Shown in pieces: positions 4,476 to 21,624 of a stretch of DNA of 64,000 nt (within the stretch, counting starts at the first letter, position 1; each line of letters opens with the position of its first letter). This DNA is from an uncultured Dehalococcoidia bacterium. GTDB taxonomy: Bacteria; Chloroflexota; Dehalococcoidia; Lucifugimonadales; UBA3495. The translations under genes and the position numbers were made by a program. The notes beneath the pieces are model-generated. The model searched no databases and was not told the DNA's origin. It was given only the letters and a program-made list of their open reading frames with translations. The stretch spans positions 45,854 to 109,853 of the forward strand of contig CAZCZB010000001.1 of the NCBI GenBank assembly GCA_964502995.1. Direction: 5' to 3'.

Positions 4476-4528
4476 CCCGCGACCCGCCGGCTGGCGGGTT
4501 TCGCCGTCGCTACGGCTCATCAGGCGGG
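4476..4528 (-). ncRNA. hammerhead ribozyme, type I (copy a)
   Basis: Minus strand: CCCGC CUGAUGA GCCGU-AGCG-ACGGC GAA A-CCCGCC-AGCC-GGCGGG-U C^GCGGG. Full catalytic core. Predicted cleavage between 4481 and 4480. Confidence 0.85.
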
Positions 4529-4738
4529 CTGGCTGCAATGTTGGGTGTTGAAGCCGTGTACCTGGCACCAATCCCTTACCGGCGTACCGGTGGAGCTTTG
4601 GCACGGAACCTGCGGAGTCCCGAGGTTGGCCTTCCAGCACTTGGGGCAGTCCTGCTGGCTCCAGTACTCGACCGTCTTCGGCAGCGCTTTGCCCAGGGAC
4701 TCCCGAGCGCGGTCGATGAGGACCTGGGGCGCCCGCAT
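4520..4738 (-). CDS. small Cys-containing protein, probably 5'-truncated
   Basis: 72 aa from ATG 4738, ending ...HGFNTQHCSQPA with its UGA inside the hammerhead core. The frame stays open and protein-like up to 4876 (..FKKKYETILDLDYLEG M..) with no ATG, GTG or TTG. Confidence 0.5.
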   Translation of the reverse strand: MRAPQVLIDRARESLGKALPKTVEYWSQQDCPKCWKANLGTPQVPCQSSTGTPVRDWCQVHGFNTQHCSQPA

Positions 4739-5011
4739 CCCCTCCAGATAGTCCAGGTCGAGGATGGTCTCGTACTTCTTCTTGAACGGGGAGGAAATTT
4801 CGCTACTCCGGATCAGATGGACCAGTAGCTGAAAGCCGCCAATCCCGTGACGAATTGCGTCTCGGTGTTTCTGGAGTCAGCCGGCCTTTGGGAGTGAGCA
4901 AATCCTAGGCAGACCAGCACCGTGCAAAGTCGCGGAAATCAGGCAACTAAAGCAGGGAACTCCGGTACCTAGGAGTTTTCGTCGAAATTGGACTCGTGGT
5001 GACCACAATCG

Positions 5012-7480
5012 CTAGGTCACCAACTTGTCCCCCAAATGCCCCCGCAAAGAATCTGTGGCATCTTGAGCGTCCCACTTCAAACGAATAATTTTCTCCACGT
5101 CGTCGCTGATATGGGACACCTCATTGCGGTCGTCATGAACAGGTAACACTAGATCTCGCCACCGGTCTGCGAGATTGGGCAGAGTGGTGTCGGTAAATAC
5201 GTGCCCGCTCATTTGCGCCTGGACGAACTCTGAAGACAGCAACGCCAGCAAGTAAAACGGAGTGATGCCATGCCGGTTTTGAACATTGACGACTCGTATG
5301 GTCAGCAGTTCCCGAGTTAGCAGGACATTTTTGTCCCTGCTGGATGCCATTGCCACGGTTCCTATCCTGTAGCTTCCACGCCTCACCATGATGATGTCGC
5401 CTTCTTCCGGTAGGCGCTTGTTTTTGGTCATTCTGCAGAACGTATCAATAGGCACCAAGGACACCGGATTGCGGTACATCTCCCAATTCACGATGTCCTT
5501 CACCCGAATGTAGGGGATAGTCCCTTGTCCCTTAGCAGTCGCGGGCGGAGACCCGTGACCATCCCAGCACTGGATGACTCCTTTTTCTTCCAGTTGCCCC
5601 AAGGTGATCCCGGTCCGACCTGTCGGGACATTGACTGGTCGGGCTTTTTTCGAGAGGTAGTACGACGGAACCAACGCGTTGCGGTCAACGTCAGAGTAAG
5701 GGACCGTAAACGTGAACTGGTTACCAGGGTCACCCGGGTTGTGAAGTTCGCCCTTGACGACGGCGATGTCATCCCATATCTCGGCTGTTCCAGTCCTGTA
5801 CAAAGTTTTGCCGTTATGGTCATGCCCCATCTCTTCTGGCACTGCCATGACGATGGTGTCTTGCTGAGGCACGCCTTTCTCCAGCACCAACAGGCAGGTC
5901 TTGGCATTGCAGTAGGGCCGGAACGTGTTGTGTGGTAGCTGGACAACCGCTTTGAGGTTGTTGTTTTTCATAATGAATTGGCGGAGGTAGCCGAGCTGCT
6001 GACCGTGAAGCACTGTTTCAGGCAACACGATTGCCAGCGTACCTTCGTCCAGTAGCATGTCCAAGCATCGCTCAACGAACAGAACGTAAGGGTCTCGGGC
6101 GATTACCGACCGGGTCATCTGGTATTCACCACTCTGCTTTTCCAACTTCCACTTGTGCCCGAGTTCGAAATTCGCACAATCAGACGTGAGGACCTTAGTC
6201 TTTGTCCCAAATGGCGGGTTTGTCAGCACGAAGTTGAACCGCCGGAAATTGTTTCCAACGACGAACTTGGCTTTGGCTGGGTCCGTGAAATGATCAGCCT
6301 CGTGTAGCGAATTGTCGTGGACGACGTTGCTTTTGCCGTCGCCGGCAATGGACATGTGCGCTTTCGCGATTTTCACGAGATCCGATTCTTTGTCGATCCC
6401 GAACAAGGTACGTGCCGCCATGGATTTCTTGATACCTTCGAGTTGGGCTGAGCCCTTGTACCTAGGATCCTGATCCATTTCCCGCCAAATATGGTGCATC
6501 GCCTGAATGAGAAATCCACCAGACCCACAAGCTGGATCACATACCGTCTCGTTAGGTTTAGGTGCAGCGATCTCGACAGCCAACTCCACTACGTTCCTTG
6601 GCGTAAAGAATTCTCCTTTTTCGCCAACGAGACGCGACTCAGCGAAAACTTCAAAAGCGTCCCCCACAACATCGGTATCAGTGGACAGCAGGCTGCCTCT
6701 CTCGAGTTGACCCACGACCCAAGCGGTCGAACGTGCGTCCAGCGTGACTGTATCACCCTCCAGGAACACTCCGTCGCTCTGCAGGTCCTCCTTCACGCGT
6801 TCGAACAGACCGTCGATTCTCTGTTTTACATCTTCGGGGTCCTCACCAAACTGGACGCGAAAATCTGGCGGAAGACTCAAAAAACTCTTCTCATCTTCGA
6901 TCTTGCAAAAGATCAATTTGATCATTTCAGCGCCGAGCTTTTCGCGGCGACTGATGTTCGTGTTCGCATACAGATTATTCAGGATGCGGCGAAAAGCAGT
7001 GATGAGGTCGGCACGCTGGAATGGTGCCAACTCCGACTTTTTGATACGTCCAATGTCAGCAATCGTTTGTCCACGGGCAGGGATGTTGTAAAGGGAACCT
7101 TCCAACACCGCATTCTGGCTGACGTCCTTGAACAGGTACTCAATGTCGTTCCCGTTCGTCCAGACTGCCCAGACGGCCGATGTGGCGGTCATATACGATT
7201 TGAGCTGAGCTATCCCGTCGTCCCGCTCTGGCCTTTTGGTTTCGACAATTCCCCACACGTCCCGGGCAGGGTCACGCCCCGAGGCTGGCCTGTAGACCAC
7301 GATGTCAGCCTTGTCGGCGAAATAGCCTGATCCACGAGGAATCTGCACCTCAATGTCCAGTTCGCTCTTGCGATAGCCATAACTCTCGATCAGCACGCGC
7401 TCGTAATCTTGGCGCACCCGTTCTTCAGGCTTCGACAGGTCAATGGACTTGCCCGTCGCAAAGTCTTTCGATTTCGCCAT
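5012..7480 (-). CDS. single-chain type IIG-like restriction-modification enzyme (PD-(D/E)xK HSDR_N-like nuclease + N6-adenine methylase + target-recognition region)
   Basis: Motif I DPACGSGGFL and motif IV LTNPPFG. N-terminus YGYRKSELDIEVQIPRGSGYFADKADIVVY...GIVETKRP resembles the type I R-subunit N-terminal nuclease fold. Start placed at ATG 7480 (MAKSKDF); the track ORF extends to 7666. Confidence 0.8.
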   Translation of the reverse strand: MAKSKDFATGKSIDLSKPEERVRQDYERVLIESYGYRKSELDIEVQIPRGSGYFADKADIVVYRPASGRDPARDVWGIVETKRPERDDGIAQLKSYMTATSAVWAVWTNGNDIEYLFKDVSQNAVLEGSLYNIPARGQTIADIGRIKKSELAPFQRADLITAFRRILNNLYANTNISRREKLGAEMIKLIFCKIEDEKSFLSLPPDFRVQFGEDPEDVKQRIDGLFERVKEDLQSDGVFLEGDTVTLDARSTAWVVGQLERGSLLSTDTDVVGDAFEVFAESRLVGEKGEFFTPRNVVELAVEIAAPKPNETVCDPACGSGGFLIQAMHHIWREMDQDPRYKGSAQLEGIKKSMAARTLFGIDKESDLVKIAKAHMSIAGDGKSNVVHDNSLHEADHFTDPAKAKFVVGNNFRRFNFVLTNPPFGTKTKVLTSDCANFELGHKWKLEKQSGEYQMTRSVIARDPYVLFVERCLDMLLDEGTLAIVLPETVLHGQQLGYLRQFIMKNNNLKAVVQLPHNTFRPYCNAKTCLLVLEKGVPQQDTIVMAVPEEMGHDHNGKTLYRTGTAEIWDDIAVVKGELHNPGDPGNQFTFTVPYSDVDRNALVPSYYLSKKARPVNVPTGRTGITLGQLEEKGVIQCWDGHGSPPATAKGQGTIPYIRVKDIVNWEMYRNPVSLVPIDTFCRMTKNKRLPEEGDIIMVRRGSYRIGTVAMASSRDKNVLLTRELLTIRVVNVQNRHGITPFYLLALLSSEFVQAQMSGHVFTDTTLPNLADRWRDLVLPVHDDRNEVSHISDDVEKIIRLKWDAQDATDSLRGHLGDKLVT

Positions 7481-7686
7481 GATGCCACCCCCAACGCCGT
7501 CGACGTCGACAGCTCGTGGTTTCGCAGCAAGACCGAACCGCCTGCAGGCGCTGACAGTCCGTACCATGCGATGTGATGTTATCACAAAACTCTCGGCCCT
7601 TTGATGCAGACGAACGCTCCTACCGGGGTAGCGGGAGAAACAATAGAGTTCGTCCTCGTCGGCCAATCGGCGTTAATGTGCTTCAC

Positions 7687-9174
7687 CTACGCCGCCTGTT
7701 GAGCGGCGTTGAGTTCGTGGAGCACCAGCGCCGCCACGACGCCCGGCTCAACGCTCTGCTCTTCCCGACGCTTGGAACCTTTGGCAGGCGGCATCCTGAT
7801 CCTCATGTGCCGCATGTGGACGTAGTCGTCGGCCTTCAGGTGGGCCAGCGCCGTGGCCAAGTAGGTCAGCGTCGCCATCGCCACGTGCAGCGACACCTTC
7901 TGGATGTTCAGGTAGCGGTGGGTGTCCAGCAGCCTGCTGTGCTTGGCACTGCTGAAGTGCCGCTCGATGATCGGCCGCTTCTTGTACTCGGCCTTCCATT
8001 CGTCCGAACAGCGGGGCAGCAGGCCCACAATCCGCAACAGCCGACCCTCGGTCTTCTCGTAGTGGGCGTAATCGCAATGCCTCGTAAACTGCACGCTGTC
8101 CTTCAGGTGGCAACCCTCGGCGGGACACCCGAACAGGTGCCCCTGCTCTGGATCAGTCTCGACGTACTCCATGGACTTACCGCCCACGCAGGTCGGCCGG
8201 CCATCAGCGTCATAAATGCCGTCGTACCGCCGCTCGCCGGTTTCCTTGTCCTTCTCGGGCAGCCGGACCGCGATCACTGGCATCATGCCCACGTCGATGA
8301 CGTGCCGGATGTTGTCCAATTTGTCGTAGCCCTTGTCGCCCAGGAAGTAGTGCGGCCTCAGTTCGGGGTACAGGACCAAGCAGTCATCAAGGTCCTCGAC
8401 CATCACCGCCACGTCGCTGGCGTTGGCTGGACGGGTCCTGGCGAACATCGGCAATCCGTAGTTGGAGTCTGCGACGACATCAATCGAGTAGCCGAAGTAC
8501 AGCTCGTCCTTGCTGTCCTTCTGGCCCGACTCCGCGCTGTCGCCTTTGGGCTTGGACTTGCTCTTCTTGGAATTGCGGCCTTTGCGTCCCTTGCTGGAGC
8601 GGGCATTCTTGGCGGTGCGGTGTCCCCACTTGGCGTCCGTATCCTTGGACGGTATCTCGTCACCCGTCTTCCGGCTCTTGCGACTTGGCCGTGCCCACGC
8701 CTCAACGTCGGTGCTGTCGATGACCAGCGAGTGTCCCAGCGGCGGCTTATCGGCAGGGACGATGCCGGCTTCGCGCAGCCGTTCGATCTCGCCTCGGCAT
8801 TCAAGGAACACTTCGGCGATGATGGGATCGAAGGTGTCTCGATGCGCGGCCAGTTTCTTCTTGAATCGGCTGTAGGCCCCTTCACTGGGGGCGCATTCGA
8901 GGTCGCAGATGCCCAGCAGGCGGTCGTCGCTGCCCAAGCGGTTCAGGAAGCCGTTGGCGTAGCGCTCATTGAGCGCGAACTGCATCACGAAAGCAGCCAG
9001 CATGGGCAAAGCTGTGTAGCCTGGGTTTCCGCCGCGCTCGTGGGGCGCGTCCAAGGTCTCCGCCAGAGGGCCGGCACGGGATACTACACCCCCAACCACG
9101 CCTTCGAGGAAGCCGTAGCCGCTCTTGGGGGGTTGTTTAGGTAATGGTGTATGCTTAAAATAGCAGTCGCCCAC
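7687..9174 (-). CDS. IS4/IS5-superfamily DDE transposase (DUF772-like N-terminus)
   Basis: 495 aa. GNPGYTALPMLAAFVMQFALNERYANGFL resembles the DUF772 N-terminus. FLGDKGYD and YKKRPIIERHFSSAKH give the Y-2-R-3-E-6-K signature. I could not define the IS ends by eye. Confidence 0.85.
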   Translation of the reverse strand: MGDCYFKHTPLPKQPPKSGYGFLEGVVGGVVSRAGPLAETLDAPHERGGNPGYTALPMLAAFVMQFALNERYANGFLNRLGSDDRLLGICDLECAPSEGAYSRFKKKLAAHRDTFDPIIAEVFLECRGEIERLREAGIVPADKPPLGHSLVIDSTDVEAWARPSRKSRKTGDEIPSKDTDAKWGHRTAKNARSSKGRKGRNSKKSKSKPKGDSAESGQKDSKDELYFGYSIDVVADSNYGLPMFARTRPANASDVAVMVEDLDDCLVLYPELRPHYFLGDKGYDKLDNIRHVIDVGMMPVIAVRLPEKDKETGERRYDGIYDADGRPTCVGGKSMEYVETDPEQGHLFGCPAEGCHLKDSVQFTRHCDYAHYEKTEGRLLRIVGLLPRCSDEWKAEYKKRPIIERHFSSAKHSRLLDTHRYLNIQKVSLHVAMATLTYLATALAHLKADDYVHMRHMRIRMPPAKGSKRREEQSVEPGVVAALVLHELNAAQQAA

Positions 9175-9683
9175 AACGATTTTTCTCGGTCCGCGGGGGC
9201 ACCAGGCCGCTTGGTTTGTGAGAGATCCAAGCGGTCAAAATTATGTTCTATTTTGACTGGTGACATTATACCCGGAGGCCCTTCCTGCCTCAACCGAAAA
9301 CAGGGGGTTCGGGCCGTTTTTGAGTACAAAAAGTGCTCATTTCGAGCAGGGTAGGGCGATTGCGCAACGGCCCGGCCGGGCGTTCCTAGGGCGCAGTTAA
9401 GGCCCCGAGTGCACCCTGATTTTTGCCCCAGCGAAAAATGGATGCCCCAGGGCGTCCGTAGACGGCCCGTATTGGCCGTTCCGGGATTCCATGCGGTATT
9501 ATTCGACGGAGTCGGAAAAATCGCTCAGGGGCCGGATATGGCGATTTTCGGGGGCATTTTCGACGGTGCGCCCGGGGCGATTTCGGGACGCCGGCAGGGG
9601 CCGGCAATCAGCGGTTACCCGGAAAAATCGGGTCTGTGGCGGATTACGAAAAGCGTCGCTTCGCTGGATGATATACGTCCCGG

Positions 9684-9803
9684 TCAGCTCGGGGGCGGAG
9701 TAGCGAAATTTCCTCTGAACGGGTTGAACTTCTTGACCAGCCTGGTGGCCTCGTGGCCGCAGCGGTGAAGCACGACCGTGCTGGCTTGGCTTTTGGTGGT
9801 CAT
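9684..9803 (-). CDS. short ORF (39 codons) behind hammerhead-b leader; possibly the 5' remnant of a disrupted gene
   Basis: My translation: MTTKSQASTVVLHRCGHEATRLVKKFNPFRGNFATPPPS*. Good SD (GCAAGGAGAGAGACC AUG). Followed by ~500 nt with no convincing ORF. Confidence 0.3.
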   Translation of the reverse strand: MTTKSQASTVVLHRCGHEATRLVKKFNPFRGNFATPPPS

Positions 9804-9835
9804 GGTCTCTCTCCTTGCAGGGTTGGTGTAGGTAT

Positions 9836-9891
9836 CCCGCGACGGCCCGTAGGTTGGGGCCGTTTCGCCGTCTCACGGCTCATCAGGCAGG
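9836..9891 (-). ncRNA. hammerhead ribozyme, type I (copy b)
   Basis: CCUGC CUGAUGA GCCGU-GAG-ACGGC GAA A-CGGCCC-CAACCUAC-GGGCCG-U C^GCGGG. Predicted cleavage between 9841 and 9840. Confidence 0.85.
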
Positions 9892-10092
9892 CTGGTTCTC
9901 GGAGTTTGCCAAGCAGTCTTCGCAGTTCACCATGTAGCCTGCCGAGCTGTAGACCACGTAGTGCTCTCCCGCCATAGTGGACTGGCCCATGGCATAGTGG
10001 CGGGTCGTGACCTCGGCCAAACAGGCGGGCCGGGAGCTACCAACGCACTCTGTCAAATGGAAGGTAGCGCGCTTCTCGAACTTCTCAAACAT
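9883..10092 (-). CDS. small Cys-containing hypothetical protein
   Basis: 69 aa ending ...SENQPA, with its UGA being core nucleotides U4-G5-A6 of hammerhead b. SD AAGGAGAGAGACC before ATG 10092. Confidence 0.55.
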   Translation of the reverse strand: MFEKFEKRATFHLTECVGSSRPACLAEVTTRHYAMGQSTMAGEHYVVYSSAGYMVNCEDCLANSENQPA

Positions 10093-10134
10093 GGTCTCTC
10101 TCCTTGCCTTGTGAACTAGCGTTCTGATACGATA

Positions 10135-10162
10135 ACGATAGCAGACCGACCAGTGGTGTAAA
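10135..10162 (-). promoter_or_regulatory. candidate promoter TTTACA-N16-TATCGT (TGC extended -10)
   Basis: Minus strand: CCCCTTTACACCACTGGTCGGTCTGCTATCGT. Nearly identical copy at 18145-18172. Confidence 0.4.
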
Positions 10163-10367
10163 GGGGTTTGCGGAAAATGCGAACCGTGGCATTGGGACGC
10201 CGGCCAGCGAGCGCATCGGACGCCCTGGGCTGCTACGGCGGTAAGACCGTCTGCAAAAAAACCAGTTCAGGATAGGTAGGAAGCGGGGGTTCTGTAACAT
10301 TTGCGGGGTAGTTCCCTGTTCTAAAAACTCGTGCTGGGATTTGGCGGTTTTAGAACGCTACCCCCCC

Positions 10368-10397
10368 TTGACAGGGTGTATCCGTAGGGTGTATCCT
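10368..10397 (+). promoter_or_regulatory. candidate promoter TTGACA-N18-TATCCT overlapped by a tandem direct repeat GGGTGTATCC x2
   Basis: TTGACA at 10368-10373 and TATCCT at 10392-10397. The spacer and -10 consist of GGGTGTATCC-gta-GGGTGTATCC. Confidence 0.45.
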
Positions 10398-10427
10398 ATG
10401 GGTACATCAAAAACGGAGGAACCCAAA

Positions 10428-10928: not shown

Positions 10929-10932
10929 TGCG

Positions 10933-11330: not shown

Positions 11331-11368
11331 AAAAAAAGGCCGGGGCAGGGTTCAACCCTGCCCCGGCC
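11331..11368 (-). terminator. rho-independent terminator (minus strand)
   Basis: Perfect 13-bp stem GGCCGGGGCAGGG/CCCTGCCCCGGCC with a 5-nt loop. An A7 run on the plus side gives U7 after the hairpin on the minus strand, downstream of the 11403..11924 gene. Confidence 0.7.
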
Positions 11369-11402
11369 TCGGGATCCCTTTTCGGTGATGGAGGTAGGCG
11401 CT

Positions 11403-11924: not shown

Positions 11925-11952
11925 GATATTCCTCCAATCGTCATTAGCGAAT

Positions 11953-12315: not shown

Positions 12316-12324
12316 GTCAGTCCG

Positions 12325-13602
12325 CTATTCCAAACCTGGCCTAATCTGCGTTATCTGACCTAATCTCTCGATTGGCGATCCACAGGCAGGCACAGTGTTG
12401 GTTGACGCTTCACCGACCACCGCCGGCGTAGCCGGACTTACACAGTCTCCACGTCCTGACACCGGGAAGCTCGAACCCGGCCATTGTTCCAAATTCAGCG
12501 CGGCGTTCGCGTCACGCTCGACCAGCGCACCACATCCGCCGCAATACCACTGCCGATCAGAGAGCGTCATCTCTGCGTTGTGCCATCCGCAGTGAGCGCA
12601 CAGCCTGGACGAAGGGAACCATCGATCCGCCTTCTCAAAGTGGGCGCCGTACCAGGCGCACTTGTACTCCAGTTTGACCAGGAACCCGGCCATCCCAGCA
12701 TCGGCGATGGCCCGCGCCAGTCGCCGGTTCCGCATCATGCCAGCCACGTTCAGCGTCTCCACCACCACCCGGCCCGCCGACTTGGCTATCGCCGTCGTCG
12801 CCTTGTGGTGGTTGTCATTCCGAACGTTGACTATCCTGGCGTGCAGCCGCCGTCGTTTCGCGTACAGACACTCGCGCCGGTTGGAGCGATTGCTCTTGCC
12901 GTGGACGTTCCGGCTGCGGGCGATGGCTTTGTCAAGCCGGCGCAACTGCTTGAGGCCGCTGGCCAGCGCCTTTGGATTGGCCACCCTGGTACCGTCCGAG
13001 CACTCGGCCATCGTACCAACGCCGACATCGACACCGGTGGTCCGTCCATCCTTGACCGGCGGCGGTTGTTCACCGTCCTCGATGCAGAACGCGGCGAACC
13101 ACGTCCCCGCCGTGCGATTGATCGTTACCTCGCGGATCGAGCCGGGAAAGCGCAGAGCCTCCACCATGTCCACCCGGCCTATCTTCGGGAGGACCACCGC
13201 CTTGCCGTCCACGCGCACGGTGTCGGGACCGTTGTCGGCTCGGAATCCTTGTTCGTGCCGCCGCCGCTTGAAACGCGGGAACCCAACGCGCCGTCCTGGG
13301 CGCTGGCCAGCCTTCACCGCCTTGCGGTACGCCCCCCAACCCGCCGCGGCCTGGCCGAAGTCGATGATGGCGTATTTCGCAGCGTTCTGAGACAGCGGCG
13401 CGGACCATGGGGCGATCATCCCCTTGACCTTGTTCCAACGCGGCCGCAACGTGCGCTCGGACAGCCACTCGCCAACGTCCAGTCCAGCCTTGAACTCGCC
13501 CACCGCCCAGTTGTAGGCGAACCTGGCATAGCCGGCGTGCTGAGCCAGGACGGACTCCTGCTCCCGCGTAGGCTTCAACGCTATCCGGTGTGCTCGCTTC
13601 AT
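12325..13602 (-). CDS. tnpB: TnpB (OrfB) RNA-guided-endonuclease-type transposon protein
   Basis: 425 aa. N-terminal MKRAHRIALKPTREQESVLAQHAGYARFAYNWAV and a C-terminal zinc ribbon CAHCGWHN...WYCGGCGALVERDANAALNL. Confidence 0.9.
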   Translation of the reverse strand: MKRAHRIALKPTREQESVLAQHAGYARFAYNWAVGEFKAGLDVGEWLSERTLRPRWNKVKGMIAPWSAPLSQNAAKYAIIDFGQAAAGWGAYRKAVKAGQRPGRRVGFPRFKRRRHEQGFRADNGPDTVRVDGKAVVLPKIGRVDMVEALRFPGSIREVTINRTAGTWFAAFCIEDGEQPPPVKDGRTTGVDVGVGTMAECSDGTRVANPKALASGLKQLRRLDKAIARSRNVHGKSNRSNRRECLYAKRRRLHARIVNVRNDNHHKATTAIAKSAGRVVVETLNVAGMMRNRRLARAIADAGMAGFLVKLEYKCAWYGAHFEKADRWFPSSRLCAHCGWHNAEMTLSDRQWYCGGCGALVERDANAALNLEQWPGSSFPVSGRGDCVSPATPAVVGEASTNTVPACGSPIERLGQITQIRPGLE

Positions 13603-13605
13603 GGC

Positions 13606-14262
13606 CTATCCGATCAGCGACAGTTGCCGCGCCGTCTCCACCACAGTCTGATCTCCATCGTTGGCCAGCGCGTCCAGCAGTTTCTTGCTCTTGTGGCTGC
13701 GACTGCCGTACAACTTCGCCGAAAACACGGTGATGATCTCCAGCACGTCCTGCGCCAACTCTTCCTCAAAACTCGGCTGCTCGCCTTGATGGATGATGAC
13801 GATCTCGATACCTTGCAGCTCGCACAACGTGAACACCAGTTCAGCGCCGAACCGCAACAGCCGGTCCTTGTGCGTGATTACCAGCCGCTCCGTCCGCCGG
13901 CGCAGGATCAACTCCAGCAACTCCTGGAGTCCTTTCTTGCGGTAGTTCATACCGCTGCCGAGGTCGCGGATCACCTGGGTGCGCCATCCTTTCGTCGCGC
14001 AGTAGGCCTCTAGCGCGGCGTGCTGGCGATCCAGATCCGCCTTCTGGTCCGGGCTGGATACTCGCGAATAGCAAATGGTCAGCGGTTCCGCCGGGTCGCT
14101 CCGGTAGCCGAGCAGGTCCGCGACGGCGTAGTAGCGAGTGCCGCCCTGCGTTTTGCGCGTCGGCATCAATTCGCCGGTGGACTCCCACTTCCGCAACTGT
14201 CCCGGTGTGGTCCCGAGCATTCTCGCCGCTTCGCCTATCTTGACCAGTCTGGCATCGTTCAT
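13606..14262 (-). CDS. tnpA: IS607-type serine recombinase transposase
   Basis: 218 aa. MerR-like HTH (VKIGEAARMLGTTPGQLRKWESTGEL) followed by the resolvase catalytic motif ICYSRVSSPDQKADLDRQ. Confidence 0.9.
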   Translation of the reverse strand: MNDARLVKIGEAARMLGTTPGQLRKWESTGELMPTRKTQGGTRYYAVADLLGYRSDPAEPLTICYSRVSSPDQKADLDRQHAALEAYCATKGWRTQVIRDLGSGMNYRKKGLQELLELILRRRTERLVITHKDRLLRFGAELVFTLCELQGIEIVIIHQGEQPSFEEELAQDVLEIITVFSAKLYGSRSHKSKKLLDALANDGDQTVVETARQLSLIG

Positions 14263-14298
14263 TAGACCATATTAGCATCGATTAGGTGAGATTTTGGC

Positions 14299-15057: not shown

Positions 15058-15080
15058 TCTATCCTCCTTTCCAATTCCCG

Positions 15081-15671: not shown

Positions 15672-15886
15672 CGTGGTCTTGCCTCCTTCTACTCACAGGG
15701 TTGCCGTCGCGCGCTGGCGGTGGAAAAGTAGTACCGCCGGCAGACGTAGCATTGGCGTCCGCCCAACTTGTCGGGCGGCGCCAGTCGGTGCTGCCGTCCG
15801 GAGACACACGCCCGGCAGGGGCAATGGTCGCCGTGCTCTCACCAAGGGCCCAGCAACGTTGGCATTGGTATCTGCCCTTCCATCGC

Positions 15887-16180
15887 TCAGGCTATCCTGG
15901 CGGTTGCCCGTTCGTAGTCGCGGCTTCGCCGCAGGATCCGGTAGATGGAGCGATCAGTAACCTGAAACCGTACCGCCGCTTCCCTGGTCGTCAGGCCCTC
16001 ATTCCTGATAATCGCCGCAACGATCAGGTCGCGCTCCCGGCGTTGCTGCAACCGGTAATCAGCCAGCGCGTCGGGATTGTCGTAGAGACATTCCGGCAAC
16101 GGGCAATTCAGGCACGAGGGGAAATACTTGCAGCCGGTGTCCTTGTAATAGTCCGGCCAGTGATTTTCCATCTGATCCAT
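15887..16180 (-). CDS. small HTH DNA-binding protein
   Basis: Start at ATG 16180 (MDQMENH; RBS GAGGAA). The C-terminal LTTREAAVRFQVTDRSIYRILRR is a typical HTH. N-terminal Cys cluster. Confidence 0.6.
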   Translation of the reverse strand: MDQMENHWPDYYKDTGCKYFPSCLNCPLPECLYDNPDALADYRLQQRRERDLIVAAIIRNEGLTTREAAVRFQVTDRSIYRILRRSRDYERATARIA

Positions 16181-16259
16181 GTCCTTGTTCCTCTGACCTG
16201 CCTTGTTCAACGCCGGGCGGTCAACCCCGGTCGGACGCCCCGTGTCCGGGGCGTTTCGG

Positions 16260-16433
16260 CTATCCCTCGGCAACCGTTACTTCGATGGCCTTGGGAGCGC
16301 CGCCGGGGAACGCGGACTTGCTGATGTACACCGTGCTGACGGCGGCGTTTTCGTCCACTGCGGCGTACCGGTAGGTGCCCTTGGTCTCCTTGTCCTGTTC
16401 CATTCGAATGCTGATTGGTGTAATCTTTGCCAT
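16260..16433 (-). CDS. small hypothetical protein (57 aa)
   Basis: Below the track cutoff. My translation: MAKITPISIRMEQDKETKGTYRYAAVDENAAVSTVYISKSAFPGGAPKAIEVTVAEG*. RBS AAGGAGG before ATG 16433. Confidence 0.5.
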   Translation of the reverse strand: MAKITPISIRMEQDKETKGTYRYAAVDENAAVSTVYISKSAFPGGAPKAIEVTVAEG

Positions 16434-16460
16434 GGTTCTTCCTCCTTGGCAGGTGAATCT

Positions 16461-16483
16461 GGGGGCCGGACATTCCGGCCCCC
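16461..16483 (-). other. intercistronic GC hairpin immediately after dnaN stop
   Basis: GGGGGCCGG-aaugu-CCGGCCCCC (9 bp) with no U tract. Followed by an SD for the next gene. Confidence 0.5.
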
Positions 16484-16490
16484 GTGGTGG

Positions 16491-17756
16491 CTACCACTGG
16501 ACGTACATGGGCATTACCACGTACTTGAAGGTTTCATCGTCTGGGAGGGTCCAAAGGCCGGGGCTGCTGGGATTGTTTGCCGACAGGACCAACGGCCCCT
16601 CAACGACCTTGAGCAATTCGGACACGTACTTCGAGTTGAAGGCGATGCGGCCGAGATTTTCGTCCTCACCATCCAGTCCCATGACTTCGGCGCACTGGGC
16701 CTCCCGCTTGGCGTAGCCGACATCCTCGGTCCTGGCCGACACCCGGATGATTCCCGCCATCGCCGGCCCGTCTTCAGTGCGTTCTTCCTCGGGGATGGCC
16801 GTCTGCTCCGTCCAGAAGCGGATGATGTTGCTACCGTCCACCGCGTACACTGCGGCGCTTTCCACGGCGCCCTTCAAGACTTTGGCGTCGGTCTGCACCT
16901 GCCACGTCGGGCTGTCGGGAATCAGGGGCTCATAGTTGGGAAATTCGCTGGCGATCATCTGGGTCAGCACCAGATAGCTGCCGACCTCGAACTGGGCCTT
17001 GCTGTTGTCACGGTCGATGTTCAACCGCACCGGGTCTTCGGTGGACTTGAGCAGTTTCTCCATCGCCGTGAAGGTGCGGGCCGGAATCACCACCTGTAGC
17101 GGATCCTCCATCGGCTCGGCCTCCGGTGCAATCTCCCCCGTCTGGCAGGCCGCCTCAATCAGGTTGCCCCGCTGGCAGGCCAACCGGAAACCGTCGGCTG
17201 CGGCCAGCTCGTAACCGTTGTCGTCGAGCTTGAGGCAAATGCCAGTCAACACCGGCCTGGACTCGTCCTTCGCCGCCGCCAGTTGCACCCGCCGGATGTT
17301 CCCGGCCAGCTCGTCAGGGTCGAAGAGAACCGCCACGGGTTGGTTGAACTCCGTCTCTATCGTCGGCGGGAAGTCCGCAACAGCAACGCCGTTGAACGTG
17401 GCCTCGGTGTCGTTGACGCCAGACCGGATGGTCAGAACCAGGTTGCTGCCGCCGATGCCCGGCTCGGCTTCCTCATCGACGGGGCCGACCTCAAGGTCCA
17501 GACGGTCGGAGGCGAGGGTGCGGACGAAATCGTTCAGCATCTTGTGGCTGACGCAGATCCCGCCCTCATCTTCCACCATCGCTCCGACCCAGGTGCTGAA
17601 CCCCTTCTCAAGGTCAGTGGTATCCACCCGAAGCATTCCACGGTCGGTGGTCAGTCTCACCATCTTGCAGACGGGGATGCCATCCCCGCTGGCGGTGAAC
17701 GGCTTGGCCGCCGCCAGCGCCCTGGTGAAGTTTTCCTGTAACAACGAGACTCTCAT
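16491..17756 (-). CDS. dnaN: DNA polymerase III beta sliding clamp
   Basis: 421 aa. The start (LLQENFTRALAAAKPF...VRLTTDRGMLRVDTTDLE), the three-domain length and the ending ...FKYVVMPMYV fit DnaN. Confidence 0.8.
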   Translation of the reverse strand: MRVSLLQENFTRALAAAKPFTASGDGIPVCKMVRLTTDRGMLRVDTTDLEKGFSTWVGAMVEDEGGICVSHKMLNDFVRTLASDRLDLEVGPVDEEAEPGIGGSNLVLTIRSGVNDTEATFNGVAVADFPPTIETEFNQPVAVLFDPDELAGNIRRVQLAAAKDESRPVLTGICLKLDDNGYELAAADGFRLACQRGNLIEAACQTGEIAPEAEPMEDPLQVVIPARTFTAMEKLLKSTEDPVRLNIDRDNSKAQFEVGSYLVLTQMIASEFPNYEPLIPDSPTWQVQTDAKVLKGAVESAAVYAVDGSNIIRFWTEQTAIPEEERTEDGPAMAGIIRVSARTEDVGYAKREAQCAEVMGLDGEDENLGRIAFNSKYVSELLKVVEGPLVLSANNPSSPGLWTLPDDETFKYVVMPMYVQW

Positions 17757-17786
17757 GGTCTTCTCCTTTGCGGGTAGTGTAGGTAT

Positions 17787-17842
17787 CCCGCGACGGCCCG
17801 GAGGCCGGGCCGTTTCGCCGTCGCTACGGCTCGTCAGGCGAG
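17787..17842 (-). ncRNA. hammerhead ribozyme, type I (copy c)
   Basis: CUCGC CUGACGA GCCGU-AGCG-ACGGC GAA A-CGGCCCGG-CCU-CCGGGCCG-U C^GCGGG. Predicted cleavage between 17792 and 17791. Leader and SD feed dnaN. Confidence 0.85.
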
Positions 17843-17850
17843 CTGGGCGT

Positions 17851-18102
17851 CTAGTTCTCGGTCGTCTTCAAGGTGCCGTCGGCGTTGAGTTCCTCGGCAA
17901 AAACGTGGCCAGCGCTGAAAGACTCCCAAGTCCGTGGAACTGTCATCGGGGGAAGTGGCACGTCGTTATGCAGGGTTGCGGGGCAGTAGCGGCAGATCAT
18001 GTCAATGGGGTCGCCGTTGCGGTCGCGGGGAGAATCGGGCGCGGCGGTGAAGGAATGCCGACCCCTTTCCTCAAAGTATTCGCAGATGATGGTGGCGTCC
18101 AT
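17851..18102 (-). CDS. small hypothetical protein (83 aa)
   Basis: Start at ATG 18102 (MDATIICEYFEERG; RBS GGCAAGGAG). The UAG stop lies just before hammerhead c. Confidence 0.55.
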   Translation of the reverse strand: MDATIICEYFEERGRHSFTAAPDSPRDRNGDPIDMICRYCPATLHNDVPLPPMTVPRTWESFSAGHVFAEELNADGTLKTTEN

Positions 18103-18144
18103 GTTCCTACTCCTTGCCTTGTGAACTAGCGTTCTGATACGATA

Positions 18145-18172
18145 ACGATAGCAGGCCGACCGGTGGTGTAAA
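18145..18172 (-). promoter_or_regulatory. candidate promoter TTTACA-N16-TATCGT (copy of 10135-10162)
   Basis: Region 18111-18180 is ~97% identical to 10101-10170 (2 mismatches by eye). Confidence 0.4.
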
Positions 18173-18226
18173 GGGGTTTGGCGGGGAGTTGCGGAAATTC
18201 CTGAAAATGCGAACCTTGGCAATAAG

Positions 18227-18397
18227 TCACGGACATTGCAGCCGGTTAACGGGCAGGCGTGGATCGTAGGGGCGACGGCATTGGCAACACATCAGGGAGC
18301 CGTCGGGCATTCGGTAACAGGCCAGGCCGTTCCAAGGGTGATTGGCGCGACAGGCGCACAGCAGGGCAATGCTGGCGGTCTCGTCGGTGATCGTCAT
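18227..18397 (-). CDS. small Cys-rich protein (56 aa)
   Basis: Below the track cutoff. My translation: MTITDETASIALLCACRANHPWNGLACYRMPDGSLMCCQCRRPYDPRLPVNRLQCP*. RBS UAGGAGAG before ATG 18397. Confidence 0.4.
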   Translation of the reverse strand: MTITDETASIALLCACRANHPWNGLACYRMPDGSLMCCQCRRPYDPRLPVNRLQCP

Positions 18398-18432
18398 CTG
18401 CGTGCTCTCCTAAATCGGTAGGTCGGAATCCA

Positions 18433-18840
18433 TTAGGCGTCGGCGCAACCGAAGCCCGTGCAGCGTGAGGCCATGCGGTCAAAGACATTAGGTTCGCCGC
18501 GCTGGTGGCACCCGACCTCGACCTCGTACATTGACCCTCCCCAGTTTTTGTCCAGAGGGACATGGGTGAGGTAATGGCCCCTCGCGCACAGGTACACAAT
18601 GTGCTTTTTGTAGTGCCGCGCGATTGCCCTGGCTGGACCCACGGGCCGGATTTGAGCGTCCTTGTTCGCGCAATCGGCGTTGACCTGCCCATCGTCGCGG
18701 TTACCGCAGTCGTCGCACAGGGGCAGCCTGCAACGCGGGCAAAACTTGTGGCCGTCCATGACCCAATTCCACACGCTGGCGGGAGCCGGGTCAATTGGAC
18801 GGGTACAGTGTGAGCATTGGTGCATCGCTGCTGTAGTCAT
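18433..18840 (-). CDS. Cys-rich hypothetical protein
   Basis: 135 aa with several CxxC pairs (CSHC, CPRC, CDDC). Confidence 0.55.
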   Translation of the reverse strand: MTTAAMHQCSHCTRPIDPAPASVWNWVMDGHKFCPRCRLPLCDDCGNRDDGQVNADCANKDAQIRPVGPARAIARHYKKHIVYLCARGHYLTHVPLDKNWGGSMYEVEVGCHQRGEPNVFDRMASRCTGFGCADA

Positions 18841-18852
18841 GGGTTTCCTGGT

Positions 18853-19209
18853 CTAGCCAGCGCGTTCGGTCGTGTGGCAGATGGTGCACTCGCGGATACT
18901 GTCGCGCCCTACCACGCCATAAACCCAATCGTGGCTGGCGGGGACGCACTGGTCTTCGTGGAATAGCGTACCGCCGCCGTCCTCCCTGTTCTCATCCGAG
19001 TGCCGCTGGCACAGGCTGTCCAGCCCCACCGACCGGAACGAGCAAACCTCGCCCTGCCGGGTTGCGGCGCAACACTGGTCCGCCCACTTGCCCGCGTACT
19101 CCACGAAAATCGGGATGACATAGCAGACCCGGTAGCTGAACGGCTCCCCCTTGTAGCCATTGGCCGTCAATTCGATTGTGACGGGTTCTTTGCTGATCGT
19201 GATAATCAT
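18853..19209 (-). CDS. hypothetical protein (118 aa)
   Basis: Start at ATG 19209 (MIITISKEPV), behind the hammerhead-d leader GCAAGGAGAGAACC. Confidence 0.55.
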   Translation of the reverse strand: MIITISKEPVTIELTANGYKGEPFSYRVCYVIPIFVEYAGKWADQCCAATRQGEVCSFRSVGLDSLCQRHSDENREDGGGTLFHEDQCVPASHDWVYGVVGRDSIRECTICHTTERAG

Positions 19210-19239
19210 GGTTCTCTCCTTGCGGGTTGGTGTAGGGAT

Positions 19240-19298
19240 CCCGCGACCCGCCGGTCCTGACCGGCAGGTTTCGCTGTCGATACAGCTCATCAGGCGGA
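19240..19298 (-). ncRNA. hammerhead ribozyme, type I (copy d)
   Basis: UCCGC CUGAUGA GCUGU-AUCG-ACAGC GAA A-CCUGCCGG-UCAGGA-CCGGCGGG-U C^GCGGG. Stem II is compensatory relative to copies a-c. Predicted cleavage between 19245 and 19244. Confidence 0.85.
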
Positions 19299-19391
19299 CT
19301 GAATTTGGATCGCTCCGTCCCGTATCTGCTCCTGAATGACGGACTTGGTGCGCTCGAAGTCGTCCTGGGCCGCTTCCAACGAGTCGTGAGA

Positions 19392-19583
19392 CTAGCAGTA
19401 GAAGCCCGGGTTGCCGCGGACCTGAACGGTCAATATGAACACCTCCCGGGACGGCGTAACGCCCTGGAAAATGAGGCCCATCGCGGTGCCGGGCTCAAGG
19501 TCGGCGGTGGACGAATGTGTCTCCCAGGTGGCGACGATGCCGTCGTTGGGATGTCCGTAACGTCTCCAAGTGGTCTCGCTCAT
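19392..19583 (-). CDS. small hypothetical protein (63 aa) ending at an in-frame UAG
   Basis: Track ORF. After UAG (19394..19392) the same frame stays open for 33 codons to the UGA inside hammerhead d (see findings). Confidence 0.5.
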   Translation of the reverse strand: MSETTWRRYGHPNDGIVATWETHSSTADLEPGTAMGLIFQGVTPSREVFILTVQVRGNPGFYC

Positions 19584-19595
19584 GCTGGTCCTCCG

Positions 19596-20258
19596 TCAGA
19601 ACTCCGCGTGTTCGTTGCCCTGGGCGTCGACGTAGGTCGGGAACTCCGGCAGCTCGCCTCGGGCTTCCTCAGCCCTGAAGGCTGCCAGCGCCTTGTCAGC
19701 AACTTCCCGGATTACCGGGTACTTTTCGAGCAACTTCTTCGTCCCGTTTGCACTCTCGTTCCACCAGATCCCGACCTCGGGATGGTTGTCGTAGAACATG
19801 CAGACAGCGGACAGCAATTCCTGCATCATCGGAACCGTCATGACGTCCATTTCTACCGAGTCGCCGTCAGCGGGGTGCAAATCCTCGTACCTCTCTTCGA
19901 CGGTTTGGATCGCCGCGACGAAGATCCGTGCCAGGTCCGTCCCGAGGATGGCCTGGGACTGGTCGTTCCATTGCAGCAGGGTCGGCCGGCGATCAGCCAT
20001 GGCCAACGTCTCGAATTCGGCCTCAGTGACTTCGACGAGCACCTGGTAACGCCTTTCACCGTCCGGCACAGAAACCCAAAGGGATGCTGCGCGGGGAACC
20101 GTAACGGACCGGTCGAGGACGGTATGCTCGCCTCCCGTGCCGATAGTCCAGTCTTCCCAGACATCCTGGGGCACACGGCGCAGTTCAACTTCGTCCAGGC
20201 TATCGACCGCGGCAAAGTCGCCGGTCGGCAACACCGCTATCAACTGATACTGACCCAT
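19596..20258 (-). CDS. hypothetical protein with C-terminal ELPEFPTYV..GNEHAEF tail
   Basis: 220 aa. SD AAGGAGAGAAUA from the hammerhead-e leader. Confidence 0.65.
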   Translation of the reverse strand: MGQYQLIAVLPTGDFAAVDSLDEVELRRVPQDVWEDWTIGTGGEHTVLDRSVTVPRAASLWVSVPDGERRYQVLVEVTEAEFETLAMADRRPTLLQWNDQSQAILGTDLARIFVAAIQTVEERYEDLHPADGDSVEMDVMTVPMMQELLSAVCMFYDNHPEVGIWWNESANGTKKLLEKYPVIREVADKALAAFRAEEARGELPEFPTYVDAQGNEHAEF

Positions 20259-20298
20259 TATTCTCTCCTTGCTGCGGGCAGGTGATTTTGTAGGCTAT

Positions 20299-20357
20299 CC
20301 CGCGATCCGCCTGACGGCGGATTTCGGCCCGGCGCCACCGGGCCATCGTCAGGCAGG
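20299..20357 (-). ncRNA. hammerhead ribozyme, type I (copy e; extra U after A9)
   Basis: CCUGC CUGACGA U GGCCCGG-UGGCG-CCGGGCC GAA A-UCCGCC-GUCA-GGCGGA-U C^GCGGG. Predicted cleavage between 20304 and 20303. Confidence 0.75.
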
Positions 20358-20795
20358 GTCATCAACCAGCGAATACCGAGGTTCGCGCCAGGTGTCGTCA
20401 TCATCGTCGTTCCGGGTTGACCATGGGCAGCGGCGGGGGGCGCACGGGACAGCGCGTTCGCCTTCCGGCCCATCGCGTCCATCGCCGTCTTCGCGCATCC
20501 TCAAATGGTCGTTGCCGCAGGCGTGCCAGACCGTTTCTTCACACTGGGGCGTCCCGTCGGTGTACCAGCGTTTGATACAACTAACGCCGTTCCTCATGGC
20601 GGGGGCGAAAGCGATGTTGAGGTCTTCCACACGGACGGACGCGGACGGCTGGCTTGGGGCACGGGAGCATTGGCGGCAGCGGTCGCAGGCCAGACAGACG
20701 TGCAAGAACCCACCGCAGGCTTTACAGGGACGCTTCCACGGTTCGAAGCGATGACCTTCGGGGCGGATGCAAGGGAGAAATGGACGCTTGTTCAT
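20349..20795 (-). CDS. Cys-rich hypothetical protein
   Basis: 148 aa ending ...LVDDPA, with its UGA in the hammerhead-e core. RBS AAGGAGG before ATG 20795. Confidence 0.6.
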   Translation of the reverse strand: MNKRPFLPCIRPEGHRFEPWKRPCKACGGFLHVCLACDRCRQCSRAPSQPSASVRVEDLNIAFAPAMRNGVSCIKRWYTDGTPQCEETVWHACGNDHLRMREDGDGRDGPEGERAVPCAPRRCPWSTRNDDDDDTWREPRYSLVDDPA

Positions 20796-20859
20796 GGCGG
20801 AACCTCCTTATTCGCGGTTGGTTGGCTTCTCTGCCGGGACAAGACGCCCCGATTCGTGG

Positions 20860-21150
20860 TCAGGCGGGCTGGCTGCAATTTTGGGTGTTGAACCCGTGTG
20901 CCTGTAACGTCGGCGGAATGATCGGGCCGATGTCGCCAAACAGCGTATGGGTATCATCAATCGGCGGCGCGTCGGGAAGATCGCATACCTCGCCATTGTC
21001 CTCACACCAGGTGCAGTAGTAACGCTCCCAATCCCGGTACTCGGACGGGCCGAATTGCAGCCGTTCAGCGTGTCCACAGACAGGACACTGCAGCAGTTTC
21101 AGCCCGCAGATGGTTTCGATCACGGCTGGCGTTGTGGGGATGGTCGTCAT
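20860..21150 (-). CDS. small zinc-ribbon protein (96 aa)
   Basis: Start at ATG 21150 (MTTIPTTPAV; RBS GAAGGAG). Has CPVC and CTWC. The C-terminus AHGFNTQNCSQPA parallels the 4520..4738 product. Confidence 0.55.
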   Translation of the reverse strand: MTTIPTTPAVIETICGLKLLQCPVCGHAERLQFGPSEYRDWERYYCTWCEDNGEVCDLPDAPPIDDTHTLFGDIGPIIPPTLQAHGFNTQNCSQPA

Positions 21151-21212
21151 GGGTTCGACTCCTTCTTGTATGTGTTGGACAGTATTTTCGGCGCCTTTTA
21201 TCGCAAGTCGGA

Positions 21213-21530
21213 CTAGCGGCCCTTGCGCAATCGCCCCGACAGTCCCGCCCGTTTCAAGGCCGCATTGACCCTTCGGCGGTTGAGGGAGAACATCTGGCGG
21301 GAGTTGCCGAACGTCCAGTCCACGGCATCGCCCATTTCCACGAAGAAATTGTGGGCCTTCCTGCCACAGTCCGCGCAGATTGGTCCGCCCTCGCCGTCGC
21401 AATGCACGGCCAGCTGATAGGCATAGTCTCCGGTCAGAATCTCGGCCGGGTGCCGGGCTTCTCCGCAGGTGTTGCAAGTCGCGGACGAATCCACTTTGCG
21501 CAAGCCTTCCAGAATTTCGGCAACGGTCAT
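21213..21530 (-). CDS. small Cys-containing hypothetical protein
   Basis: 105 aa, directly behind the hammerhead-f leader. Confidence 0.55.
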   Translation of the reverse strand: MTVAEILEGLRKVDSSATCNTCGEARHPAEILTGDYAYQLAVHCDGEGGPICADCGRKAHNFFVEMGDAVDWTFGNSRQMFSLNRRRVNAALKRAGLSGRLRKGR

Positions 21531-21563
21531 GCTGTCTCTCCCAGCGGGTAGTGAGTTTGGCTT

Positions 21564-21624
21564 CCCGCGATCCCCTGGGCCGGGGATTTCGGGCCGGGAG
21601 CCACCCGGCCCATCGTCAGGCAGG
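21564..21624 (-). ncRNA. hammerhead ribozyme, type I (copy f; extra U after A9)
   Basis: CCUGC CUGACGA U GGGCCGGG-UGGCU-CCCGGCCC GAA A-UCCCC-GGCCCA-GGGGA-U C^GCGGG. Predicted cleavage between 21569 and 21568. Confidence 0.75.

Follow-up and report, generated by a model that had tools for sequence, protein, structure and literature searches.

Type I hammerhead motifs between the genes of a probable phage element in a Dehalococcoidia bacterium, and the leader hairpins they may release

Introduction

Why would self-cleaving RNA motifs stand between one gene and the next, time after time, along a single bacterial locus? The question is raised by a stretch of 64,000 nucleotides (nt) from an uncultured Dehalococcoidia bacterium (positions 45,854 to 109,853 of contig CAZCZB010000001.1, GenBank assembly GCA_964502995.1; this whole stretch is called the window below), in which six hammerhead ribozyme motifs lie on the minus strand, the coding strand, of an integrated phage-like element. 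The purpose of bacterial and phage hammerheads has been in question since their discovery in 2011, and a 2019 review still asks for work on it (PMC6765202). According to Perreault et al. (2011; PMC3088659), hammerheads cluster around single prophage genes, three-ribozyme arrays cleave in vitro, and one three-hammerhead prophage array also cleaves in Escherichia coli; the class is thus already known, as the original prediction for this locus had itself pointed out. Clusters around prophage genes, pseudoknots and the idea that polycistronic RNA is cut are all published there. What is added here is a product hairpin that covaries with the ribozyme, an indel bounded by hammerheads, a variant type II element and a blind spot of Rfam.

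Judging from the sequence and its relatives, we read the six motifs as functional type I hammerheads in the early or replication block of the element, which probably cut a polycistronic minus-strand RNA after C17 (rough probability 0.8).

Results

Six complete type I motifs on the coding strand

The window holds six complete type I hammerhead motifs of two subtypes, named a to f by rising window coordinate, all on the minus strand. Each is laid out as a stem I strand (over the six copies: CCCGC, CCUGC, CUCGC, UCCGC, CCUGC and CCUGC), CUGAUGA or CUGACGA, a closed stem II, GAA, an A followed by a closed stem III and a U, then C and GCGGG. The invariant core (C3 U4 G5 A6 N7 G8 A9, G12 A13 A14, A15.1-U16.1 and H17) is intact in every copy. 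Stems II and III are closed by loops and stem I is open, with stem lengths, as delimited by the descriptor given below, of 5 base pairs (bp) for stem I, 5–8 bp for stem II and 6–10 bp for stem III. Stem II is GCCGU/ACGGC in copies a (4476–4528, loop AGCG), b (9836–9891, loop GAG) and c (17787–17842, loop AGCG; directly upstream of a β-clamp gene at 16491–17756), and a short GCUGU/ACAGC in copy d (19240–19298, loop AUCG). Copies e (20299–20357; stem II GGCCCGG/CCGGGCC, loop UGGCG) and f (21564–21624; stem II GGGCCGGG/CCCGGCCC, loop UGGCU) make up the second subtype, in which an extra U follows A9; within the window it is confined to these two copies, and across the wider family it is the majority state. 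Cleavage is predicted between 4481 and 4480 (a), 9841 and 9840 (b), 17792 and 17791 (c), 19245 and 19244 (d), 20304 and 20303 (e), and 21569 and 21568 (f), the second number of each pair being the predicted first nucleotide of the 3′ product, which the original prediction had placed correctly within the motif. Its coordinates, layout, core, quoted stem II sequences, extra U in e and f, and division into two structural type I subtypes on the coding strand likewise all read from the sequence as claimed.

Folded alone, five of the six copies, f among them, adopt the three-way junction as their minimum-energy structure. A structural descriptor (CUGANGA, a stem II no shorter than 3 bp, GAAA, a stem III with 4 bp or more, UH, and a stem I with 3 bp or more) finds exactly the six sites on the minus strand of the whole window and none on the plus strand. 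When the whole window was shuffled 200 times with its dinucleotide composition preserved, the same descriptor gave four matches in total over both strands, that is 0.02 expected per window versus six seen. The covariance model R1, which describes the three helices and was built from 36 diverse aligned sequences of the viral database IMG/VR, none of them from the window, was run with its filters off and also returned exactly these six sites: e with 63.3 bits (expectation value, E, 6e-14), f with 55.4 bits (E 7e-12), a with 48.4, b with 43.6, c with 42.7 and d with 35.8 bits (E 8e-7). The next R1 match (E 0.05) is an antisense artefact inside copy e.

A widespread family with strong covariation

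The family to which these motifs belong is widespread in viral contigs; two pattern scans of IMG/VR, one of them with the pattern GCCTGAYGA...CGAAA...TCGCGGGA, returned at least 120 loci each. In an alignment of 97 members from the window, its relatives and viral contigs, 97.3% of the cells form standard pairs and 13 of the 16 base pairs are altered on both sides by compensatory changes. None of 500 shuffles reached any of five covariation measures, and sliding the pairing partners by 1–3 columns lowered pairing to 33–47%. The alignment was fitted to R1, which favours the structure somewhat; the margin is large.

Two of the viral contigs, L028 and L067, carry six copies each within about 3.5 kilobases (kb), and the density of six copies in 17 kb, which had been called unusual, is therefore not so. 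The pattern of the a–d subtype was found only in L121 and L122 among the viral contigs and in L123 and L124 among genomes. A metagenome scan for more copies of this type with TCGCGGGATNCCTACAC gave 80 loci, all chance or coding matches without a hammerhead, and was discarded. BLAST searches of cultured phage genomes with hammerhead e, the type II sequence described below and the 18-kb block returned nothing significant.

Conservation and exchange in syntenic relatives

Four relatives are syntenic with window positions 1–28000: L123, a contig of a Dehalococcoidia metagenome-assembled genome that the a–d pattern had picked out, and the metagenome contigs L205, L206 and L207, which came from a protein database search followed by contig look-up. 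Protein searches of the viral contigs with the β clamp and the 220-amino-acid (aa) protein encoded after copy e found no relatives. R1 locates four to five hammerheads in each of the four contigs, and they occupy orthologous places: before the gene for the 220/234-aa protein (the place of e), after the next small gene (d), before the clamp gene (c) and before the RadC-like block (a). At the place of e, where the window has the long subtype, L205, L206 and L123 carry the other, short one. Orthologous hammerheads stand at the place of d in L206 (11003–11060) and L123 (11–68), and before the orthologous clamp gene in L205 (11380–11439) and L206 (11856–11907); at this clamp position the window, L205 and L206 have three different sets of stems II and III around intact cores. 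At the place of a, the L205 hammerhead (17663–17718) overlaps the stop of the gene at 17402–17671. Stems and even subtypes thus differ between relatives while the cores stay intact, so that selection acts on the fold and not on the sequence.

The relatives also reveal insertions and possible exchanges. Compared with L205, the window has an insertion of about 4.9 kb (4814–9698, minus strand) that splits an 89-aa gene: its front half follows hammerhead b (9803–9699) and its back half ends within hammerhead a (4813–4520). The insert carries a DDE transposase gene (7687–9174) and a gene for an 884-aa methyltransferase with HSDR_N and N6-methylase domains (5012–7666). Owing to this split, the open reading frame (ORF) after copy b, which starts at the ATG at 9803, stops after 39 codons. 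A second insertion stands beside it as a separate observation: an IS607-like pair (12325–14262, minus strand), consisting of a 218-aa serine recombinase (13606–14262) and a 425-aa TnpB-like protein (12325–13602), is missing from L205, where its flanks lie about 100 nt apart.

Between L205 (at 8898) and L206 (8484–8956) there is a 414-bp indel that comprises one hammerhead and a 105-aa gene. Its junction falls in 12 nt, CCCGCCTGACGA, common to two hammerhead copies, and the flanks are 97% and 93% identical; the repeats therefore mark breakpoints at which gene cassettes are gained or lost. Hammerhead bodies are also mosaic: stem III of L206 11856–11907, ACCCGCCAGCCGGCGGGU, is identical to that of window copy a (4476–4528), which stands at a different position, and at one position L205 and L206 share the same tail behind different ribozyme bodies. 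Such patterns suggest exchange between hammerhead copies.

A pseudoknot between loop II and the tail

In the viral family, variable bases follow a GG in loop II, and just past stem I the tail has their complement and then CC. The base after the GG of loop II pairs with the base before the CC of the tail in 68 of 72 non-redundant members (C:G 42 times, U:A 13 times and G:C 11 times at this first variable pair), versus a mean of 42.4 under permutation; none of 5000 permutations reached 68. Among the type I copies of the window, the contact is present only in f (UGGCU:AGCCA) and e (GGC:GCC). Perreault et al. (2011; PMC3088659) found, with truncations and compensatory mutations, that pseudoknots of this kind speed up cleavage by orders of magnitude. 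Pairing of GGC in loop II with GCC in the tail would assist the active fold in e and f. Copies a to d share another conserved tail, AU(A/U/C)CCUACAC, with which stem-loop II could make a different contact (GUAG or GUG with CUACAC) in every one of these copies.

Product hairpins next to the translation signals

The 3′ strand of stem I, GCGGG, has a second possible partner in all six copies, CCCGC (CCUGC in b), located 8–20 nt downstream. The resulting hairpin would begin at the first nucleotide of the cleavage product, and its 3′ strand stops 2–5 nt short of the Shine-Dalgarno sequence of the next gene. In product f (21528–21568, minus strand like all the others), GCGGG at 21568–21564 pairs with CCCGC at 21548–21544 around a loop that holds the pseudoknot partner AGCCA, followed by the Shine-Dalgarno sequence GGAG at 21541–21538 and an ATG at 21530. 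Product e (20256–20303) pairs 20303–20299 with CCCGC at 20278–20274, its loop holds the pseudoknot partner GCC, and a Shine-Dalgarno sequence (20268–20265) and ATG (20258) of the 220-aa ORF follow. The corresponding elements are, for product d (19207–19244), GCGGG 19244–19240, CCCGC 19226–19222, Shine-Dalgarno 19219–19216 and ATG 19209 of a 118-aa ORF; for product c (17754–17791), GCGGG 17791–17787, CCCGC 17774–17770, Shine-Dalgarno 17766–17763 and ATG 17756 of the β clamp; for product b (9801–9840), GCGGG 9840–9836, CCUGC 9821–9817, Shine-Dalgarno 9814–9811 and ATG 9803; and for product a (4440–4480), GCGGG 4480–4476, CCCGC 4461–4457, Shine-Dalgarno 4454–4451 and ATG 4442 of a 71-aa ORF. Folded with ViennaRNA, every one of the six 3′ products has a 5-bp stem that starts at nucleotide 1. 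Because the pseudoknot partner sits in the loop of the product hairpin, the active fold and the product fold are mutually exclusive.

The hairpin covaries with stem I throughout the family. Among non-redundant viral members, CCGC occurs at nt 8–35 in 60 of 81 products that begin with GCGG, as against 5 of 48 that begin with GUGG; the latter have CCAC instead (31 of 48; Fisher p = 6e-13 for covariation of stem I and hairpin). Less common types of stem I are matched by complements of their own (ACGGG:CCCGU and GCAGC:GCUGC). CCGC is present in 56 of 77 tails, and control tetramers with an equal base composition in 2–18 of 77. A Shine-Dalgarno-like motif with a start codon lies no more than 60 nt past the cleavage site in 58 of 77 family members (median 39 nt); in the window, GGAG follows each cleavage site and the ATG comes 35–45 nt after it.

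On the upstream side, the UGA of the ribozyme core is itself the stop codon of the preceding ORF in copies a (4522–4520), b (9885–9883, closing a 127-codon open frame), e (20351–20349, ORF 20349–20795) and f (21618–21616, a 94-aa ORF at 21616–21900), and at copy c, 9 nt separate the end of the upstream ORF from the ribozyme. In the relatives, independent gene calls let five hammerheads overlap the end of the upstream gene, which reaches 8 nt into the ribozyme. The motifs had been described as woven into coding and translation signals in an unusual way. The weaving is real, with core UGA codons that serve as stops and starts that follow at close range, but it is normal for the family in viral contigs. 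Neither a product hairpin by the Shine-Dalgarno sequence, nor the core UGA as a stop, nor indel junctions inside hammerheads is mentioned in the passages searched of Perreault et al. (2011; PMC3088659) or in the other literature searched.

Coding sequence also runs through the 5′ strand of stem I into the beginning of the core (window 4520–4531, 9883–9894 and 21616–21627, minus strand): at a, b and f, unrelated upstream ORFs all end in Gln-Pro-Ala-stop (CAG CCY GCC UGA), the L205 copy at 8898 likewise has the CAG, and the ORF upstream of e ends in Pro-Ala-stop without it. The conserved CCAG before stem I is explained by the CAG codon of these Gln-Pro-Ala-stop endings. As an extension of the helix CCAG was rejected, there being no pairing with the tail.

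A seventh, variant type II element

A further hammerhead-like element, unlisted in the original prediction, lies on the minus strand at 16192–16261, between a UAG stop and the Shine-Dalgarno sequence of a gene that starts with the ATG at 16180. Its connectivity is that of a type II hammerhead: stem II GCC/GGC, GAAA, stem III CGCCCC/GGGGCG, GUC, a stem I hairpin and a pseudoknot of 5 bp between loop I (UGACC, 16223–16219) and the 3′ tail (GGUCA, 16198–16194). The putative cut falls between 16234 and 16233. In place of CUGAUGA (consensus core CUGANGA) it has UUGAACAA at 16210–16203, and the Rfam model Hammerhead_II (RF02276) scores it at 33.5 bits (E 0.003), below the gathering threshold of 37. 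Orthologous copies in L205 (12929–12996) and L206 (13396–13463) have the same variant core and reach 35.8 bits, again below 37.

Three unrelated viral contigs (L237, L278 and L319) carry the core UUGAACAA or UUGAAUAA, in short UUGAAYAA, with a different stem III and pseudoknot. All 100 cells pair across the five type II sequences; changes on both sides affect six pairs, of which three belong to the pseudoknot. A loose search pattern for this variant gave mostly chance matches, so that a structural filter was needed; a tighter pattern found no further lineage. UUGAAYAA is most simply read as a U3-A8 covariation plus a one-base insertion. Perreault et al. (2011; PMC3088659) describe both changes singly: natural variants in which U3-A8 replaces C3-G8 are active, and those with an A inserted after A6 (A6a) have low activity. 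A hammerhead-like RNA of a Xanthomonas phage that departs from the core at more than one point showed no activity in their tests.

Genomic surroundings

Each of the six type I copies lies between the stop of one minus-strand ORF and the Shine-Dalgarno sequence of the next. The gene block codes mostly for small proteins to which no function is assigned, alongside the β-clamp homologue, a RadC-like protein, ParB, a PIG-L family protein, several DNA methyltransferases, DUF3987 and DUF5131 proteins and a Gp3-like recombination directionality factor. A tyrosine integrase is encoded on the plus strand at 52156–53553, with host-like genes beyond. Reference to ‘phage operons’ in the original prediction is plausible in the light of the integrase, the Gp3-like factor, DUF5131, DUF3987, ParB and the β clamp, but the window contains no virion genes. 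‘Integrated phage-like element’ is for this reason the safe description; a phage nature is probable from the gene content.

Consensus scans, which are not evidence of function, picked out a promoter-like site upstream of copy f (22467–22495, minus strand; TTTACT-17-TAGAAT with TG) and two strong terminator-like hairpins on the same strand, each followed up by a T run, at 11336–11370 (stem of 16 bp) and at 22649–22668. These sites possibly frame a unit of about 11 kb that would hold hammerheads c to f together with the type II element.

Methyltransferase-like and aminotransferase-like genes (54193–63177) follow the integrase and suggest that the right end of the element lies near 53.6 kb. The whole window yielded no tRNA gene. 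Three large DNA methyltransferase genes, of the N6, C5 and N4/N6 types, are located on the minus strand (5012–7666, 33914–36076 and 38183–39859) and may, as a set within one element, represent an anti-restriction load.

Discussion

We infer co-transcription of the genes in the block, cleavage between them and a role in mRNA stability or insulation, along the following lines. Each ribozyme would fold during transcription, before the competing strand of the product hairpin exists, and cut. The upstream mRNA would keep its stop codon, about 45 nt before the cut (the core UGA in four copies), and would carry at its end the compact body of stems II and III and a 2′,3′-cyclic phosphate. The downstream mRNA would start with 5′-OH-GCGGG. 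We further propose, at roughly even odds, that the 5-bp stem I then melts and that GCGGG re-pairs with the CCCGC 8–20 nt further on, giving a hairpin flush with the 5′ end and a ribosome-binding site directly after it. Such a switch would render cleavage irreversible and would give each cistron one defined 5′ untranslated region regardless of the sequence upstream. RNase E and RNase J degrade mRNA in a manner that depends on the 5′ end, and the hairpin would shield the 5′-OH end from such 5′-end-dependent RNases.

Several observations weigh against functional ribozymes at these sites. Stem I is short, at 5 bp, and includes a G-U pair in four copies, and in longer pre-cleavage RNAs the minimum-energy fold takes the downstream hairpin over stem I in six of six cases, so that in this model the uncleaved RNA at equilibrium might be in the inactive fold. 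That preference is not decisive, since the folding model ignores both pseudoknots and the order of events during transcription. Minimal hammerheads that lack tertiary contacts are slow at cellular Mg2+ concentrations, and copies a to d are without the GGN:NCC pseudoknot, their loop II being 3–4 nt long and free of GG. The alternative contact available to them shows no covariation, because the tail never varies, and would open the top of stem II; copies a to d may be slower than e and f. Copy b may no longer be under selection, as the gene downstream of it is broken by the insertion, and the operon structure is suggested by consensus scans only.

The last of these objections concerns Rfam. The original prediction had proposed a search with the Rfam hammerhead models and had named the lack of a significant hit as grounds for rejection. 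When this search was run with Rfam 15 at gathering thresholds, there was no match anywhere in the window; at E ≤ 10 the type I sites gave only Hammerhead_HH9, with 20.5 bits for d and 20.0 bits for a versus a gathering threshold of 52. These grounds are unsound, because Rfam misses the whole family: in six viral control loci from IMG/VR (L028, L067, L065, L061, L042 and L105) it found nothing at E ≤ 0.01, whereas the same loci hold 20 R1 matches of 46–77 bits. The silence of Rfam is therefore uninformative on the six window sites. It is a gap in model coverage, not a refutation, and it means that an abundant phage hammerhead family, with at least 120 loci in each of the two IMG/VR scans, is missed by routine RNA annotation.

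How else might the locus be explained? The sites could be hammerheads by descent, some or all of them (especially a to d, and b) catalytically weak or dead, which persist as intergenic repeats and leave the RNA unprocessed. The absence from a to d of a pseudoknot conserved in the rest of the family would fit, as would the two mobile insertions and the split gene, which suggest a decaying prophage, and the in-context minimum-energy fold that avoids stem I. In a relic, however, core mutations would be expected first. Here the invariant core has stayed unaltered in the six window copies and in all orthologous ones, and the differences between stems are paired changes; at the clamp position, three relatives have three hammerheads that are distinct from one another yet intact. 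We regard such decay as improbable. A resemblance by chance, or an intergenic repeat, palindromic and rich in GC, that imitates the hammerhead consensus, might seem to gain from the lack of a significant Rfam match, but Rfam equally misses unquestionable family members. With 0.02 sites expected per window, R1 E values down to 6e-14 and strong covariation across the family, this explanation is already refuted by the shuffles, the R1 scores and the covariation, and we give it practically no credence.

Two further proposals grant the motifs a function of another kind. Dispersed, near-identical repeats of 12–60 bp at gene boundaries could have been selected chiefly as DNA, offering sites for recombination by which gene cassettes are shuffled, RNA cleavage being secondary; the 414-bp indel of L205 and L206 with its junction in the shared CCCGCCTGACGA, the bodies that are mosaic between positions, and the remark of Perreault et al. 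(2011; PMC3088659) that hammerheads do not always flank the same genes all lend themselves to this. Yet recombination sites need no compensatory pairs, pseudoknot covariation or strand bias, all of which are seen here, and recombination is better read as a side effect of repeated functional elements, so that a primary DNA-level role appears quite unlikely. Alternatively, pairs of hammerheads might excise RNAs of 1–1.5 kb that an RtcB-type ligase of the host or the ribozyme's own reverse reaction turns into circular mRNAs. A 5′-OH and a 2′,3′-cyclic phosphate are the ends that RtcB joins, and segments cut out at successive sites, 1.27 kb long from f to e, 1.06 kb from e to d and 1.45 kb from d to c, would carry just these. 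Perreault et al. (2011; PMC3088659) raised the possibility, sought spliced or circular products and found none; the conserved product hairpin, which sequesters the 5′ end, argues against religation, and no ligase gene is seen adjoining the array. We hold circularization to be very unlikely.

Returning to functional hammerheads that cut the polycistronic RNA, we tentatively suggest a more specific, and still doubtful, picture: a two-state cassette in which the 3′ strand of stem I and the tail first help to build the ribozyme and then refold as a 5′ hairpin at the Shine-Dalgarno sequence, a natural counterpart of RiboJ (see below). The cassettes would double as breakpoints, and the UUGAAYAA type II element may be active with an uncharacterized combination of core changes. 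The locus and its family offer a testable design rule, namely that the cut is placed so as to leave the stop on the upstream gene and would give the downstream gene a hairpin-capped, context-free leader. If true, ribozymes would serve phages as insulators, and the stability and translation of one gene would be uncoupled from those of its neighbours.

Comparison with known systems

The nearest published systems are the prophage clusters of Agrobacterium tumefaciens, Azorhizobium caulinodans and Clostridium scindens (Perreault et al., 2011; PMC3088659), in which coding-strand hammerheads flank single genes or short gene blocks near an integrase, as here, the fold is stabilized by a pseudoknot that links the stem I and stem II regions, and a cutting of long phage transcripts into gene-length mRNAs has been proposed. 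The window differs in that six type I copies and one variant type II copy share one block, and in that two type I subtypes stand side by side, one of them without the pseudoknot. With the type II hammerheads of bacteria and phages (RF02276), the seventh element shares the order of the helices, GAAA, the GUC site and the pseudoknot between loop I and the 3′ tail, but it combines both core deviations and, with its orthologues, scores 33.5–35.8 bits versus 37.

The proposed cassette also resembles two systems outside this group. RiboJ, reportedly described by Lou et al. in 2012, is said to be a synthetic insulator in which the sTRSV hammerhead and then a hairpin precede the ribosome-binding site. 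The order of parts is the same in the window cassette (a hammerhead, a hairpin just past the cut and an exposed ribosome-binding site), and the effect of RiboJ is to make downstream translation independent of the upstream context. RiboJ is, however, engineered; its hammerhead is of type III and comes from a satellite RNA, and its hairpin was added separately and is not made from a stem I strand, whereas the hairpin in the window competes with the active fold because it re-uses the 3′ strand of stem I. The likeness would be a functional analogy only and implies no family membership.

In glmS, self-cleavage in the leader reportedly leaves a 5′-OH that signals degradation by RNase J1 (work attributed to Collins et al. 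in 2007). As proposed for the window, a self-cleavage within a bacterial mRNA there leaves a 5′-OH on the coding fragment and so decides the fate of the mRNA. The glmS ribozyme belongs to another class, and the window cassette has no ligand; its 5′-OH is predicted to be buried in the product hairpin, so that here the outcome expected of cleavage is protection.

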